The notes beneath the pieces are model-generated. The model had not been told where the DNA came from. It did no database searches and worked only from the letters and a program-made list of their open reading frames with translations. This document shows positions 25,315 through 49,134 of a stretch of 64,000 nucleotides of DNA, one piece after another. Within the stretch, counting starts at the first letter, position 1; every line of letters begins with the position of its first letter. Source of the stretch: Escherichia coli (GTDB taxonomy: Bacteria; Pseudomonadota; Gammaproteobacteria; Enterobacterales; Enterobacteriaceae); assembly GCF_003018255.1 (NCBI RefSeq), contig NZ_CP027440.1. One strand, 5' to 3'. The translations under genes and the position numbers were made by a program.

Positions 25315-25999
25315 ACAAGTGATGCCGGTTAAGCTGGCGCAGGCGCTGGCGAATCCGTTATTTCCGGCGCTGGATAGCGCCTTACGTTCAGGCCGTCATA
25401 TTGGCCTCGACGAACTGGATAATCATGCATTCCTGATGGATTTTCAGGAATATCTGGAAGAGTTTTACGCGCGTTATAACGTTGAGCTTATTCGTGCACC
25501 GGAAGGGTTCTTCTATCTACGCCCACGTTCCACCACGCTGATCCCTCGTTCCGTCTTGTCGGAACTGGATATGATGGTCGGGAAAATCCTCTGTTATCTC
25601 TATCTCAGCCCGGAACGGCTGGCGAATGAGGGGATTTTCACCCAGCAGGAACTGTACGACGAACTGCTCACCCTGGCCGATGAAGCGAAACTGCTGAAAC
25701 TGGTGAACAACCGTTCAACCGGTTCAGACGTTGACCGGCAGAAGTTGCAGGAGAAAGTACGTTCTTCGCTCAACCGTCTGCGTCGTTTGGGTATGGTGTG
25801 GTTTATGGGCCACGACAGCAGCAAGTTCCGCATTACCGAATCGGTGTTCCGCTTCGGAGCCGATGTGCGTGCTGGCGACGATCCCCGTGAAGCACAGCGT
25901 CGCCTGATTCGTGATGGCGAAGCAATGCCGATTGAAAATCATCTGCAACTCAACGATGAAACCGAAGAGAGTCAGCCAGATAGCGGAGAGGAAGAATAA
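25295..25999 (+). CDS. mukE: chromosome partition protein MukE
   Basis: ORF 25268..25999; start placed at ATG 25295 (MSSTNIEQV...) giving 234 aa; overlaps the mukF 3' end by 20 nt. Confidence 0.9.
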
Positions 26000-28900
26000 T
26001 GATTGAACGCGGTAAATTTCGCTCACTGACGCTGATTAACTGGAACGGCTTTTTTGCCCGAACTTTTGACCTTGACGAGCTGGTCACGACGCTTTCTGGC
26101 GGTAACGGGGCGGGTAAATCCACCACCATGGCAGCGTTCGTTACGGCGCTTATCCCCGACCTGACCCTGCTGCATTTCCGTAACACTACGGAAGCCGGGG
26201 CCACCAGCGGTTCGCGCGATAAAGGTCTGCACGGTAAGCTGAAAGCGGGTGTCTGTTATTCGATGCTCGACACCATTAACTCGCGCCACCAGCGTGTAGT
26301 GGTCGGTGTGCGTCTGCAACAGGTTGCCGGACGCGATCGTAAAGTGGATATCAAACCATTTGCCATTCAGGGCCTGCCGATGTCGGTGCAGCCGACACAA
26401 CTGGTGACCGAAACTCTGAACGAACGCCAGGCGCGCGTGCTGCCGCTTAACGAGCTGAAAGACAAGCTCGAGGCGATGGAAGGCGTGCAGTTTAAACAGT
26501 TCAACTCCATTACCGATTACCACTCGCTGATGTTCGATCTGGGCATCATCGCGCGTCGTCTGCGCTCAGCGTCTGACCGTAGTAAATTCTATCGTCTGAT
26601 CGAAGCCTCGCTGTATGGCGGGATCTCCAGCGCCATTACTCGTTCTCTGCGCGACTACCTGTTGCCGGAAAACAGTGGGGTGCGGAAAGCGTTCCAGGAC
26701 ATGGAAGCGGCGCTGCGTGAAAACCGCATGACGCTGGAAGCGATTCGTGTCACCCAGTCAGACCGTGACCTGTTTAAGCATCTGATCAGCGAAGCCACCA
26801 ACTACGTGGCGGCGGACTACATGCGTCACGCCAACGAGCGCCGTGTTCATCTCGATAAGGCCCTGGAGTTTCGTCGCGAGCTACATACTTCGCGTCAGCA
26901 ACTGGCGGCTGAGCAGTACAAACACGTCGACATGGCGCGAGAGCTGGCTGAGCACAACGGTGCCGAAGGCGATCTGGAAGCGGATTATCAGGCGGCCAGC
27001 GATCACCTGAACCTGGTGCAAACCGCACTGCGTCAGCAGGAGAAGATCGAACGCTACGAAGCGGATCTCGATGAGCTGCAGATCCGTCTGGAAGAGCAAA
27101 ACGAAGTGGTGGCAGAAGCCATCGAACGCCAGGAAGAGAACGAGGCTCGTGCGGAAGCTGCCGAACTGGAAGTGGACGAGCTGAAAAGCCAGCTTGCTGA
27201 CTACCAGCAGGCGCTGGACGTCCAGCAAACGCGCGCGATCCAGTATAACCAGGCGATTGCTGCGCTTAATCGTGCCAAAGAACTGTGCCATCTGCCGGAC
27301 TTAACCGCCGACAGCGCTGCCGAATGGCTGGAAACCTTCCAGGCGAAAGAGCTGGAAGCGACCGAAAAAATGCTCTCTCTTGAGCAGAAAATGAGCATGG
27401 CGCAAACCGCGCACAGCCAGTTTGAGCAGGCTTATCAGCTGGTGGTGGCAATCAACGGCCCGCTGGCGCGTAACGAGGCGTGGGATGTCGCTCGCGAACT
27501 ATTGCGCGAAGGGGTCGATCAGCGTCACCTGGCAGAGCAGGTTCAGCCGTTGCGGATGCGCTTAAGCGAACTGGAACAGCGTCTGCGTGAGCAGCAAGAA
27601 GCTGAGCGTCTGCTGGCAGATTTCTGCAAACGTCAGGGCAAGAATTTTGATATTGATGAACTGGAAGCTCTGCATCAGGAGCTGGAAGCACGCATTGCCT
27701 CTCTTTCCGATAGCGTCTCTAACGCCCGAGAAGAGCGGATGGCACTGCGCCAGGAACAGGAACAGCTGCAGTCTCGCATTCAGAGTTTGATGCAGCGTGC
27801 ACCGGTTTGGCTGGCAGCGCAAAACAGTCTCAACCAGTTGAGCGAACAGTGCGGCGAAGAGTTCACCTCCAGCCAGGACGTCACTGAATATCTGCAACAG
27901 TTGCTGGAGCGTGAGCGCGAAGCCATTGTTGAACGCGATGAAGTAGGCGCGCGCAAAAACGCCGTCGATGAAGAGATCGAACGTTTAAGCCAGCCAGGTG
28001 GTTCTGAAGACCAGCGTTTGAATGCGCTGGCGGAGCGTTTTGGCGGCGTGCTGCTGTCCGAAATTTATGACGACGTGAGTCTGGAAGATGCGCCGTACTT
28101 CTCGGCACTGTATGGCCCGTCACGCCACGCCATCGTGGTGCCAGATCTGTCACAGGTAACCGAACACCTGGAAGGCTTGACCGATTGCCCGGAAGATCTC
28201 TATCTGATCGAAGGGGATCCGCAGTCATTCGATGACAGCGTGTTCAGCGTTGATGAGCTGGAAAAAGCGGTAGTGGTGAAAATCGCCGATCGTCAGTGGC
28301 GTTACTCACGTTTTCCGGAAGTTCCGCTGTTTGGTCGTGCTGCGCGTGAAAGCCGTATTGAAAGCCTCCATGCCGAGCGTGAAGTGCTTTCCGAACGCTT
28401 CGCCACGCTCTCTTTTGATGTACAGAAAACCCAGCGTCTGCATCAGGCGTTCAGCCGCTTTATAGGTAGTCATCTGGCGGTGGCGTTTGAGTCTGATCCG
28501 GAAGCCGAAATCCGTCAACTGAACAGCCGTCGCGTCGAACTGGAGCGGGCGCTGAGTAATCATGAAAATGATAACCAGCAGCAGCGTATTCAATTTGAGC
28601 AGGCGAAAGAGGGCGTTACGGCGCTGAACCGCATTCTGCCGCGTCTCAACCTGTTGGCTGATGACAGCCTGGCGGATCGCGTCGATGAAATCCGCGAACG
28701 TCTGGATGAAGCCCAGGAAGCCGCGCGTTTTGTTCAGCAGTTTGGCAATCAACTGGCGAAACTGGAACCGATCGTTTCGGTATTGCAGAGCGACCCGGAA
28801 CAGTTCGAACAGTTAAAAGAAGATTACGCGTACTCTCAGCAGATGCAGCGCGATGCCCGTCAGCAGGCGTTTGCCCTGACGGAAGTGGTGCAGCGTCGTG

Positions 28901-30459
28901 CGCACTTTAGCTACTCTGACTCGGCAGAAATGCTGAGCGGTAACAGCGATCTCAACGAAAAACTGCGTGAACGTCTGGAACAGGCGGAAGCGGAGCGTAC
29001 CCGCGCGCGTGAAGCGTTGCGCGGACACGCAGCGCAGTTGAGTCAGTACAACCAGGTGCTGGCTTCGCTGAAAAGTTCTTACGACACCAAAAAAGAGCTA
29101 CTCAACGATCTGCAACGTGAATTGCAGGATATCGGCGTGCGTGCTGATAGCGGGGCAGAAGAGCGGGCGCGTATTCGCCGTGACGAGTTGCACGCGCAAC
29201 TGAGCAATAACCGTTCACGCCGCAATCAACTGGAAAAAGCGCTTACCTTCTGCGAAGCGGAGATGGACAACCTGACCCGCAAACTGCGCAAGCTGGAGCG
29301 TGATTACTTTGAGATGCGCGAGCAGGTAGTGACCGCGAAAGCGGGCTGGTGTGCAGTCATGCGCATGGTGAAAGATAACGGCGTTGAACGCCGCTTACAC
29401 CGTCGTGAGCTGGCTTATCTCTCCGCTGATGATTTGCGTTCCATGTCGGATAAGGCGTTAGGTGCGCTGCGTCTGGCGGTGGCGGATAACGAACATCTGC
29501 GCGACGTGCTGCGGATGTCGGAAGATCCAAAACGTCCGGAACGTAAAATTCAGTTCTTCGTGGCGGTTTATCAGCATCTGCGTGAACGTATTCGTCAGGA
29601 TATTATTCGTACCGATGATCCGGTGGAAGCTATCGAACAGATGGAGATCGAACTTAGCCGTCTGACCGAAGAGTTAACCTCCCGTGAACAGAAACTGGCG
29701 ATCAGTTCCCGCAGCGTGGCGAACATTATTCGCAAAACCATTCAGCGCGAACAGAACCGTATCCGTATGCTCAACCAGGGTTTGCAGAACGTATCGTTCG
29801 GTCAGGTAAACAGCGTACGTCTGAATGTGAACGTGCGTGAAACGCACGCCATGCTGCTGGATGTGCTCTCTGAACAGCACGAGCAGCATCAGGATCTGTT
29901 TAACAGCAACCGTCTGACCTTCTCGGAAGCGCTGGCGAAATTGTATCAGCGTCTTAATCCGCAGATTGATATGGGGCAGCGCACGCCGCAGACCATTGGC
30001 GAAGAACTGCTGGATTACCGCAACTATCTGGAAATGGAAGTTGAGGTTAACCGTGGTTCTGATGGCTGGCTGCGCGCAGAATCTGGCGCTCTGTCGACCG
30101 GTGAGGCGATTGGTACCGGTATGTCGATTCTGGTGATGGTGGTACAAAGCTGGGAAGATGAATCTCGCCGCCTGCGCGGTAAAGATATCTCTCCTTGCCG
30201 CCTGCTGTTCCTCGATGAAGCAGCGCGACTGGATGCTCGTTCTATCGCCACGCTGTTTGAATTGTGTGAACGTTTGCAAATGCAGCTCATCATCGCAGCG
30301 CCGGAAAATATCAGTCCGGAAAAAGGCACCACCTATAAACTGGTGCGTAAAGTCTTCCAGAATACCGAACACGTTCACGTCGTCGGCCTGCGAGGATTTG
30401 CGCCGCAACTCCCTGAAACGCTTCCAGGAAGTGACGAAGCGCCTTACCAAGCGAGTTAA
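25999..30459 (+). CDS. mukB: chromosome partition protein MukB (SMC-like condensin)
   Basis: 1486-aa ORF; N-terminal Walker [10 protein letters not shown], long coiled coils, C-terminal signature region; start overlaps the mukE stop (TAATG). Confidence 0.98.
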
Positions 30460-30463
30460 AATG

Positions 30464-30490
30464 AAGGCGGCAGCAATGCCGCCTTTTCTT
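30464..30490 (+). terminator. Rho-independent terminator of smtA-mukFEB
   Basis: Hairpin aaggcggca-gcaa-tgccgcctt followed by TTCTT, 5 nt after the mukB stop. Confidence 0.7.
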
Positions 30491-30502
30491 GTGCACAGAA
30501 AA

Positions 30503-30521
30503 CCCCCAGCTAGGCTGGGGG
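30503..30521 (+). repeat. IS200 left-end subterminal hairpin
   Basis: Perfect 8-bp GC stem cccccagc-tag-gctggggg. Confidence 0.6.
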
Positions 30522-30558
30522 TTCCGGAAAGCTTTCAGCTTTGAGCCAGTTATTAAAA

Positions 30559-30627
30559 CCCCTTTTGATTTGTTAAAACACCTTGCGGTCTGGCAACTGC
30601 AAGTGTCAAACAAGAAATCAAAAGGGG
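30559..30627 (+). promoter_or_regulatory. long-range stem sequestering the tnpA ribosome-binding site
   Basis: ccccttttgatt (30559-30570) is exactly complementary to aatcaaaagggg (30616-30627), which contains the Shine-Dalgarno immediately upstream of tnpA ATG 30634; matches the known translational occlusion in IS200. Confidence 0.55.
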
Positions 30628-30633
30628 GTCCCA

Positions 30634-31092
30634 ATGGGGAACGAAAAGAGCTTAGCGCACACCCGATGGAACTGTAAATATCACATAGTTTTTGCGCCAA
30701 AATACCGAAGACAAGTGTTCTACAGAGAGAAGCGTAGAGCAATAGGCAGTATTTTGAGAAAGCTGTGTGAGTGGAAAAGCGTACGGATTCTTGAAGCTGA
30801 ATGCTGTGCAGATCATATCCATATGCTTGTGGAGATCCCGCCCAAAATGAGTGTATCCGGCTTTATGGGATATCTGAAAGGGAAAAGCAGTCTGATGCTT
30901 TACGAGCAGTTTGGTGATTTGAAATTCAAATACAGGAACAGAGAGTTCTGGTGCAGAGGGTACTACGTCGATACGGTGGGTAAGAACACGGCGAAGATAC
31001 AGGATTACATAAAGCACCAGCTTGAAGAGGATAAAATGGGAGAGCAGTTATCGATTCCCTATCCGGGCAGCCCGTTTACGGGCCGTAAGTAA
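30634..31092 (+). CDS. tnpA: IS200/IS605-family transposase TnpA (HUH Y1 single-strand transposase)
   Basis: ORF 30583..31092; start moved to ATG 30634 (MGNEKSLAHTRWNCKYHIVFAPKYRR...) giving 152 aa; HUH motif within DHIHMLVEIP; near-identical to Salmonella IS200 TnpA as recalled. Confidence 0.95.
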   Translation: MGNEKSLAHTRWNCKYHIVFAPKYRRQVFYREKRRAIGSILRKLCEWKSVRILEAECCADHIHMLVEIPPKMSVSGFMGYLKGKSSLMLYEQFGDLKFKYRNREFWCRGYYVDTVGKNTAKIQDYIKHQLEEDKMGEQLSIPYPGSPFTGRK

Positions 31093-31173
31093 CGAAGTTG
31101 GATGCAAATGTCAGATCGTGTGCGCCTGTTAGGGCGCGGCTGGTAAGAGAGCCTTATAGGCGCATTTGAAAAA

Positions 31174-31192
31174 CCTCCGGCTATGCCGGAGG
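31174..31192 (+). repeat. IS200 right-end subterminal hairpin
   Basis: Perfect stem cctccggc-tat-gccggagg followed by ATATTTATTTT. Confidence 0.6.
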
Positions 31193-31429
31193 ATATTTAT
31201 TTTCCGAAAACTCCGTTTCTGCACTAAAAAAGTGGCACATTACGGCGCGCTTTTCTTTAAACTTCTTTACATTAGGTTATGTAAAAACGTATCGGCGTTT
31301 ATATACTGAAGATAAGCCTGATGAGTAACAGGCTTGCTCGTCATACTTTCGTGAGTATTGGCGTTGTACAGGCAAGTCGTAAAATAACAGCCTGGCTATT
31401 CAGAGTATGATAAAAACAGGGGGCAAGGG

Positions 31430-43462: not shown

Positions 43463-43609
43463 GCCGGATGCGACGCTTGACGCGTCTTATCAGGCCTACA
43501 AGTCCGTTGAAAATGCTGGTTTTGTAGGCTGGATAAGGCGTTCACGCCGCATCCGGCAGCCGTGCCCAAATGCCTGATGCGACGCTTGACGCGTCTTATC
43601 AGGCCTACA
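43463..43609. repeat. REP elements forming a BIME (three copies in alternating orientation)
   Basis: gccggatgcgacgcttgacgcgtcttatcaggcctaca (43463-43500), inverted copy 43524-43560, near-identical copy 43571-43609; a partial fourth copy follows at 43631-43648; lies between convergent pepN and ssuB. Confidence 0.85.
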
Positions 43610-47887: not shown

Positions 47888-48123
47888 ACTCTCTCCTTAT
47901 AACCAATTGTTCTTGTTTTGTTAACATTGATAACAATTCGGTCAGTCTGACAGAGGGCGTCCGCGAGTCGAAATGATTTATCTGAGGAAGAAAAGCCAAA
48001 AAAAGCATAAAAAAAGCGCAATAAGAAAACGTTTGCTATTTATTGCCGCAGGTCAATTCCCTTTTGGTCCGAACTCGCACATAATACGCCCCCGGTTTGC
48101 ACACCGGGAATCCAGGAGAGTTC
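47888..48123. promoter_or_regulatory. divergent ssuE / pyrD promoter region
   Basis: 236-bp spacer between divergently transcribed ssuE and pyrD; individual operators not resolved by eye. Confidence 0.4.
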
Positions 48124-49134
48124 ATGTACTACCCCTTCGTTCGTAAAGCCCTTTTCCAGCTCGATCCAGAGCGCGCTCATGAGTTTACTTTTCAGCAATT
48201 ACGCCGTATTACCGGAACGCCGTTTGAAGCACTGGTGCGGCAGAAAGTGCCTGCGAAACCTGTTAACTGCATGGGCCTGACGTTTAAAAATCCGCTTGGT
48301 CTGGCAGCCGGTCTTGATAAAGACGGGGAGTGCATTGACGCGTTAGGCGCGATGGGATTTGGATCGATCGAGATCGGTACCGTCACGCCACGTCCCCAGC
48401 CAGGTAATGACAAGCCGCGTCTCTTTCGTCTGGTAGATGCCGAAGGTTTGATCAACCGTATGGGCTTTAATAATCTTGGCGTTGATAACCTCGTAGAGAA
48501 CGTAAAAAAAGCCCATTATGACGGCGTTCTGGGTATTAACATCGGCAAAAATAAAGATACGCCGGTGGAGCAGGGTAAAGATGACTATCTGATTTGTATG
48601 GAAAAAATCTATGCCTATGCGGGATATATCGCCATCAATATTTCATCGCCAAATACCCCAGGATTACGCACACTGCAATATGGCGAAGCGCTGGATGATC
48701 TCTTAACCGCGATTAAAAATAAGCAAAATGATTTGCAAGCGATGCACCATAAATATGTGCCGATCGCAGTGAAGATCGCGCCGGATCTTTCTGAAGAAGA
48801 ATTGATCCAGGTTGCCGATAGTTTAGTTCGCCATAATATTGATGGCGTGATTGCAACCAATACCACGCTCGATCGTTCTCTGGTTCAGGGAATGAAAAAT
48901 TGTGATCAAACCGGTGGCTTAAGTGGTCGTCCGCTTCAGTTAAAAAGCACAGAAATTATTCGCCGCTTGTCACAGGAATTAAACGGTCGCTTACCGATCA
49001 TCGGTGTTGGCGGCATTGATTCGGTTATCGCTGCGCGTGAAAAGATTGCTGCGGGGGCCTCACTGGTGCAAATTTATTCTGGTTTTATTTTTAAAGGTCC
49101 GCCGCTGATTAAAGAAATCGTTACCCATATCTAA
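48124..49134 (+). CDS. pyrD: dihydroorotate dehydrogenase (quinone)
   Basis: ORF 48097..49134; start moved to ATG 48124 ([10 protein letters not shown]...) preceded by CAGGAGAG; 336 aa. Confidence 0.96.

Follow-up and report, generated by a model that had tools for sequence, protein, structure and literature searches.

What do a GC-rich hairpin and a long pairing over a ribosome-binding site do immediately downstream of mukB in Escherichia coli, and to what kind of sequence do they belong? In the 64,000-nucleotide stretch of DNA analysed here (the window), the initial annotation had read positions 30503-30627 as the 5' region of an IS200 insertion sequence, with a terminator-like hairpin and a pairing that occludes the Shine-Dalgarno (SD) sequence of the transposase gene tnpA. 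We find that 30490-31199 is an intact copy of IS200C lying just 3' of mukB, and that the interval in question is its left end. Very probably, this left end, set into the T-tract of the mukB terminator, carries the multilayer brake on transposase expression known from IS200. The reading draws on the sequence, its predicted folding, covariation among relatives, the intactness of the copy and a match to published coordinates, all observed for this element or its relatives; the figures for termination efficiency and fold-repression, and the expression of the antisense RNA art200, are those of the Salmonella element, and to these we add by inference a role in binding the transposase.

The boundaries of the element follow from comparison with an empty site. 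Joining window position 30489 to 31200 recreates the mukB-ldtD intergenic sequence of K-12 exactly (GCCGCCTTTTCTTTTTCCGAAAAC; at the terminator, GCCGCCTTTTCTTTTTCC). Because the flanks rejoin to this empty site without a difference, the element measures 710 bp, has produced no target duplication and sits inside the T-tract of the mukB terminator, which reaches 30489/90 and was shortened by the insertion. Its length falls in the range of about 707-711 bp that is used to delimit the IS200 group, and a terminal inverted-repeat pair was absent among the repeats found in a repeat search. RefSeq labels an identical copy IS200C, and the order mukB-IS-ldtD also occurs in complete E. coli genomes, where the annotation reads "IS200/IS605-like element IS200C family transposase". 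The exact junction was found in 126 of 5,426 genomes, while an 821-nt query consisting mostly of the IS gave near-full-length matches in 1,949 genomes.

Aligned with E. coli strain 104, the locus differs solely by one T fewer in the T-run at the junction (30489/90). In this run (30486-30490) the window is one T shorter than both strain 104 and the best junction match of the 126 genomes (98.9% identity). It is the version in the window, not the longer one, that rejoins to the exact K-12 empty site, and the one-T difference could be either a real polymorphism or a homopolymer sequencing difference. The features of the locus are collected in Table 1.

Table 1. Features of the IS200C copy and its upstream flank, in window coordinates (nt numbers count from the left end of IS200, with nt 1 = 30490).
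Feature	Position	Strand	Description and basis
mukB CDS (upstream host gene)	25999-30459	+	1486-aa ORF; annotated mukB in identical E. coli loci
mukB native intrinsic terminator	30464-30490	+	Hairpin AAGGCGGCA-GCAA-TGCCGCCTT (30464-30485) and T-tract
IS200C	30490-31199	+	710 bp; equally 30491-31200 (one ambiguous T); no target duplication, no terminal inverted repeats
A-run	30497-30502	+	Adjoins 5' side of left hairpin core; candidate guide, by analogy with IS608 GL
Left-end hairpin (published terminator inverted repeat)	30501-30523	+	IS200 nt 12-34; 10-bp perfect stem, loop TAG; coordinates agree with PMC4513863
Small hairpin AAAGCU-UUC-AGCUUU	30528-30542	+	Predicted fold; helix 2 of the covariance model, 77% paired, double changes in 4 of 6 pairs
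tnpA transcription start	~30529		~nt 40; transferred position
art200 (STnc490) antisense sRNA equivalent	30553-30643	-	IS200 nt 154 to ~64; position transferred from PMC4513863; predicted fold -35.5 kcal/mol
art200 5' ends	30642/43	-	nt 153/154; transferred position
SD stem-loop	30558-30627		nt 69-138; transferred position
Anti-SD arm (5' arm, lower stem)	30559-30571	+	Exact 13-nt complement of 30615-30627
Upper stem with 6-nt apical loop CUGGCA (30590-30595)	30578-30606	+	Predicted fold; kissing-loop region with art200 (role: PMC4513863)
3' arm of lower stem with SD AAGGGGGU (30622-30629)	30615-30629	+	Predicted pairing probability and opening cost
Small hairpin UCCC-AAUG-GGGA around start codon	30629-30640	+	Predicted fold
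tnpA	30634-31092	+	Intact 152-aa Y1 (HUH) transposase; Pfam PF01797, motif residues
Candidate art200 promoter	30649-30678	-	-35 TTTACA (30678->30673); weak -10 TAAGCT (30654->30649)
Internal inverted repeat TGCGCCTGTTAGG / CCTTATAGGCGCA	31121-31164	+	Between tnpA stop and right-end hairpin
Right end	31170-31199	+	AAAA foot, hairpin CCTCCGGC-TAT-GCCGGAGG (31174-31192), then ATATTTA

The transposase gene has kept its coding capacity. Its product matches the Pfam Y1_Tnp profile (PF01797) at 3.8e-38 over profile positions 2-121 of 121, and the catalytic residues are present, with the HUH motif (HIH) at residue 61 and the tyrosine at residue 125, which is the residue mutated to obtain a catalytically dead IS200 TnpA (PMC4513863). 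Together with the IS200C annotation and a full-length match to Rfam RF01405 at 146 bits, this profile match bears out the assignment of the element to IS200. The suggestion that the copy is structurally intact is upheld as well: the 152-aa ORF, the HUH motif, Tyr125 and both end hairpins are all in place, and the left end is near-identical to those of Salmonella IS200 and Yersinia pestis IS1541. Divergence of the hairpin and pairing segments from other IS200 copies, named in the initial annotation as an observation that would speak against it, was not seen, the core of the left hairpin and the SD and anti-SD arms being identical in Salmonella IS200 and IS1541.

At the extreme left, direct reading of the sequence gives the hairpin CCCCCAGC-TAG-GCTGGGGG at 30503-30521, which had been described as a perfect 8-bp GC hairpin; its stem is perfect and even reaches 10 bp (AACCCCCAGC/GCTGGGGGTT, 30501-30523), closed by the 3-nt loop TAG. 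Its core lies about 13 nt after the mukB terminator, as had been stated, the terminator hairpin occupying 30464-30485 and the T-tract running to 30489/90. Folded as single-stranded DNA, the terminator hairpin has an energy of -11.8 kcal/mol (z = -5.6). The further proposal of two tandem stop structures stands as far as the arrangement goes, a host terminator and then the IS hairpin, and needs amending for the IS hairpin itself, which is not a textbook terminator by sequence. Downstream of it, the + strand reads UUCCGGAA, with only UU where a canonical Rho-independent terminator, a GC-rich hairpin and then a U-tract, would have its run of U; on the - strand it is followed by UUUUCUGU, and a consensus terminator scan called it on neither the + nor the - strand.

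Experimental work on IS200 is the source for a terminating role. According to PMC5435999 (citing Beuzón 1999) and PMC4513863, the IS200 left-end hairpin is a strong bidirectional Rho-independent terminator, and the former, from the same 1999 study, gives about 85% of upstream transcripts as stopped by the hairpin of the Salmonella element. By analogy with these published experiments, we infer that the left hairpin of the E. coli copy would terminate read-through from mukB. The start of tnpA transcription has been mapped in Salmonella to about nt 40 (PMC4513863), which transfers to about 30529, the 5' edge of the small hairpin at 30528-30542.

Further into the element, 30559-30570 (CCCCTTTTGATT) and 30616-30627 (AATCAAAAGGGG) are exact reverse complements. 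The 12-bp pairing given in the initial annotation is thus exact, and its full length is 13 bp (30559-30571 with 30615-30627), extending to 16 nt at 94% with a single mismatch. Under a chance model in which dinucleotide shuffles are scanned for exact 12-nt inverted repeats whose arms lie 3-100 nt apart, 0.47 such repeats are expected per shuffled 64 kb, and shuffling the local 150 nt yielded one in 22 of 5000 cases. Folding of 30491-30640, the check that had been proposed for this pairing, supports it, with an energy of -59.9 kcal/mol (z = -4.59) that none of 200 shuffles matched. In the predicted fold of the native transcript (30529-30700), each of the SD bases 30620-30627 has a probability of at least 0.99 of pairing with its anti-SD partner, and opening the SD is predicted to cost 15.6 kcal/mol; with a scrambled anti-SD arm the cost is 5.5 kcal/mol. 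The ATG at 30634 lies 5 nt past the last G of the SD, a distance that agrees with the 6 nt reported earlier to within counting convention.

In the published IS200 stem-loop at nt 69-138, the 12-bp pairing forms the lower stem, so that its reading as the IS200 design for low transposase translation was sound. This stem-loop, found here at 30558/9-30627, sequesters the SD and represses tnpA about 20-fold (PMC4513863, PMC5435999); when the lower stem is disrupted, tnpA expression goes up about 20-fold and transposition becomes more frequent (PMC4513863), and Hfq acts as a further block on IS200 tnpA (PMC5435999). As a separate observation on the start codon, a hairpin spanning it is present in 30 of 36 distinct relatives, compared with 39% of shuffles, and its sequence differs between groups, being GTCCC...GGGAC in Gammaproteobacteria and GTCATTC...GAATGAC in Firmicutes.

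The antisense RNA art200, formerly STnc490, has its 5' ends at nt 153/154, is about 90 nt long (PMC4513863) and represses tnpA about 15-fold (PMC5435999). Its promoter has been described as having a good -35 and an "almost unrecognizable" -10 (PMC4513863). The candidate promoter in the window fits that description, places its -35 and -10 at the expected distance from nt 153/154 and lies in a region identical in Y. pestis IS1541. The Rfam model RF01405 (STnc490) matches 30501-30624 on the + strand over its whole length (model 1-124 of 124) at 146.4 bits, compared with a gathering threshold of 56. This match is to the sense strand of tnpA and takes in the left-end terminator hairpin, whereas the STnc490/art200 of the literature is antisense and runs from nt 154 to about 64; since strand and extent both differ from the characterised RNA, the match is a reliable marker of the locus rather than a match to the RNA as characterised. 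Elsewhere in the window, gathering-level Rfam matches were obtained for naRNA4, a nucleoid-associated, REP-derived RNA (43527-43605, + strand, 82 bits), and for the PyrD leader (48056-48129, + strand, 98 bits).

The apical stem-loop of the tnpA leader, GCGGTCTG(G/C)CAACTGC (30584-30603), keeps its sequence between Enterobacteria and Clostridia, a distance over which TnpA identity falls to only about 70%. Judged from the aligned copies, the conservation of the apical loop exceeds what pairing needs, and in Salmonella this region is the contact at which art200 and tnpA form their kissing loop.

When positions are transferred from PMC4513863 with nt 1 set at 30490, the features of the window coincide exactly with the published IS200 coordinates. 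The published SD of IS200 is likewise AAGGGGGU (PMC4513863), and the 6-nt apical loop CUGGCA agrees with the "six unpaired residues" of the published tnpA terminal loop. The regulatory design of this left end is a rediscovery, already known from earlier work (Beuzón 1999; Ellis 2015 and 2017). In the E. coli copy, such a design would operate at several levels. The 10-bp GC-rich hairpin (nt 12-34) would stop both transcription entering from mukB and antisense transcription leaving the element. A weak internal tnpA transcript would begin just 3' of this hairpin and fold into the long stem-loop, whose lower 13-bp stem would pair the SD with the upstream anti-SD arm and so exclude 30S subunits, while the apical loop would offer the entry point for art200, made from the opposite strand. 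At the DNA level, the left hairpin and the matching hairpin on the same strand near the right end would be the single-stranded hairpins recognised by the Y1 transposase.

The set of relatives compared came from one representative-genome scan (80 loci, TnpA 66-94% identical) and includes Gammaproteobacteria (Dickeya, Vibrio, Erwinia, Edwardsiella, Budvicia, Brenneria, Tatumella and others) together with many Firmicutes. The geometry of the left hairpin is fixed in about 65 of 69 non-redundant sequences, in that the outer pairs AACC...GGTT are invariant, the six inner pairs vary and the loop is 3 nt long. When the sequences were aligned by MAFFT without structural information, each inner pair of this hairpin had 23-41 double-sided changes and none was broken. 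Applied to 67 upstream regions, MAFFT with RNAalifold detected no helices beyond the left hairpin and the apical stem; the lower stem was missed because indels had misaligned it.

A covariance model built from a 12-sequence seed aligned 69 sequences, taken at E <= 1e-7. Over all helices, 90.9% of cells were paired, compared with 71.6% in shuffles (0 of 500 as high) and 34-48% in slid controls; an alignment fitted to the structure inflates such percentages, which is mitigated by the slid-partner control and, for helix 1, by the MAFFT result. On the same footing, helix 1 (the left hairpin) is 98.6% paired with double changes in 6 of 10 pairs, helix 3 (the SD/anti-SD stem) is 97.9% paired with compensatory changes in all 13 of its 13 pairs, and helix 4 (the upper stem) is 83% paired with double changes in 10 of 11 pairs. 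As read from these alignments, the substitution patterns show a left hairpin and an SD-occluding stem maintained by compensatory evolution from Enterobacteria to Clostridia. In three relatives, from Citrobacter youngae (L005), an Enterobacter sp. (L010) and Erwinia psidii (L063), the 3' arm of the left hairpin is kept and the 5' arm has diverged or been lost; to go by their sequences, these copies may lack the left-end recognition structure and may be immobile.

The left hairpin has a counterpart on the same strand at the right end, AAAACCTCCGGCTATGCCGGAGG (31170-31192), about 80 nt past the tnpA stop, which is a 78% identical direct repeat of it with compensatory differences. Both hairpins are stable as single-stranded DNA; the right-end hairpin folds in this form at -10 kcal/mol (z = -4.45), and the terminator scan finds it terminator-like on both the + and the - strand. 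A right-end hairpin with the foot AAAACC and a loop of 3 nt, and with ATATTTATT after it, occurs in most relatives; the AAAACC foot is invariant at both ends, and in four relatives (L071, L077, L027 and L043) the stems of the two ends are identical or nearly so. Between tnpA and this hairpin, the inverted repeat at 31121-31164 is kept in Y. pestis IS1541; in a copy on a Salmonella plasmid (L084), about 75 inserted nt interrupt it. A match to the Yersinia RNA Ysr202 at 31169-31284 (- strand) was rejected, as it scored 30 bits against a gathering threshold of 315 and aligned only the right-end hairpin (- strand) and the T-run.

Such paired ends bring up the alternative that the left hairpin is primarily a transposition signal, a single-stranded DNA hairpin for TnpA, and that termination is a by-product of a stable GC hairpin; we regard the chances of this as evenly balanced. 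The fixed geometry of about 65 of the 69 relatives (AACC-N6, 3-nt loop, N6-GGTT) is unneeded for a terminator, and it recurs at the right end on the same strand in the AAAACC foot and 3-nt loop, in some elements with nearly the same stem. The weak U-tract on the + strand points the same way, as does the family rule by which the TnpA of IS200/IS605 elements binds subterminal hairpins of 20-25 nt at both ends, with a guide tetranucleotide 5' of each foot (PMC6006769, PMC3201880). The roughly 85% termination given for the Salmonella element in PMC5435999 (citing Beuzón 1999) speaks for the terminator as a function in its own right.

By analogy with that family rule, the left hairpin is probably also the left-end structure that TnpA recognises in single-stranded DNA, and if both hairpins have this role, it would explain their invariant geometry. 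Binding data for the IS200 TnpA were absent from the literature searched; the palindromes bound by IS608-type TnpA are imperfect, with an extrahelical T (PMC3201880), and those of IS200C are perfect, which counts against the analogy. The A-run 5' of each hairpin could serve as the guide for the T-run cleavage or target site, in the manner of GL and CL in IS608, on the guide-sequence concept of PMC3201880 and PMC6006769. Signal and terminator are compatible roles for one hairpin, and the former refines the explanation of the left end as a brake on transposase expression more than it competes with it.

On the K-12 map, mukB (+ strand, 976-981 kb) falls in the clockwise replichore. The + strand GC skew is positive across the window, which places the top strand of the element on the lagging-strand template, in agreement with the family rule for the active (top) strand (PMC5027513).

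A different emphasis, which we consider improbable, would have the 5' stem-loop mainly yield RNAs that regulate the host, namely a processed 5'tnpA sRNA and art200, with SD occlusion secondary in an element that rarely transposes. In Salmonella, processing of the tnpA 5' UTR does yield RNAs of about 110 and 90 nt, and these regulate invF and over 70 genes (PMC5435999; bioRxiv 10.1101/2024.06.26.600842), and the apical stem-loop is kept across phyla beyond the needs of pairing. Host-regulatory roles have been shown in Salmonella only, however, and the arm with 13 of 13 covarying pairs is the one that holds the SD, also in Vibrio and Clostridia, hosts without common target genes; the effect of lower-stem disruption on tnpA (up about 20-fold) and on transposition (PMC4513863) likewise argues for occlusion as a primary function. 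That the pairings are chance palindromes or the copy a decayed relic is practically out of the question, for although E. coli IS200 copies are seldom seen moving and some relatives (L005, L010, L063) have decayed left hairpins, both readings are ruled out by the chance expectation (0.47 per 64 kb), the fold z of -4.59, the shuffles, the strong covariation, the intact ORF and catalytic residues, the presence of both ends and the precise insertion.

A further question is whether the position of the element, directly after a host terminator, is peculiar to mukB. Of the 62 relatives whose left flank was long enough for a strict test, 39 sit immediately 3' of a different host hairpin and T-run, an arrangement found at 18 of 5000 random positions and at 81 of 2000 and 20 of 2000 T-rich positions used as controls. 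Many of the remaining relatives have visibly imperfect hairpins upstream, and the Salmonella and Y. pestis copies (L084 and L085) also come right after a host hairpin and T-run. Terminator-like sequences have been reported as over-represented just upstream of insertion sequences, most strongly for IS200/IS605 (bioRxiv 10.1101/2025.07.22.666184), so terminator adjacency is not new at the level of the family. The tandem terminators downstream of mukB probably reflect where IS200-type elements are found, rather than coincidence, and the cause may be either targeting, through the A-run guide and the T-run, or the survival of harmless insertions.

More tentatively, and with some doubt on our part, IS200-type elements might actively target the T-tracts of host terminators. 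The A-run guide 5' of the left hairpin would then pair with the T-run, the junction of double and single strand at the host hairpin might favour integration, and the left hairpin would have a triple role as TnpA site, terminator and targeting module.

Set beside known systems, the copy is closest to the IS200 of Salmonella enterica (Lam & Roth 1983; Beuzón, Marqués & Casadesús 1999; Ellis, Trussler & Haniford 2015), with which it shares the architecture at equal coordinates, the SD AAGGGGGU and a 152-aa TnpA with Y125; in the aligned Salmonella copy the left-hairpin core and the SD and anti-SD arms are identical and overall identity is about 92%. It differs in length, the Salmonella element being quoted at 707 bp and this one measuring 710 bp, and in a few substitutions beside the upper stem (30581-82, 30608-12). 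Y. pestis IS1541 is about 87% identical over the whole element, with the left hairpin, SD stem, art200 promoter region and right-end hairpin identical, and differs in host, copy number and small linker differences.

IS608 and ISDra2, the paradigms of single-strand "peel and paste" transposition, have in common with IS200C a Y1 HUH transposase, subterminal hairpins on the same strand, the lack of inverted repeats and target duplication, insertion 3' of a short target and a top strand on the lagging-strand template. IS608 differs in its imperfect hairpins with extrahelical T, cleavage 19 nt and 10 nt from the hairpins, target TTAC and tnpB, whereas IS200C has perfect hairpins, at about 11 nt and 7 nt from its ends, and a T-run as the flanking target. 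In the RNA-IN/RNA-OUT system of IS10/Tn10 and its protection from outside transcription, as in IS200, an antisense RNA covers the start of transposase translation and mRNA structure keeps read-through transcripts from being translated; the IS10 transposase is an unrelated DDE enzyme, the RNA structures are others, and IS10 pairing needs Hfq while that of art200 with tnpA does not (PMC4513863).

For annotation, the locus provides an E. coli copy of IS200C that has kept the full regulatory anatomy published for IS200. In its place after mukB the element is probably silent, and mukB and ldtD are undisrupted. If the adjacency to terminators reflects target choice, it would explain how so small an element stays transcriptionally insulated; and should active targeting of terminator T-tracts be true, the tandem terminators would amount to a built-in self-insulation.
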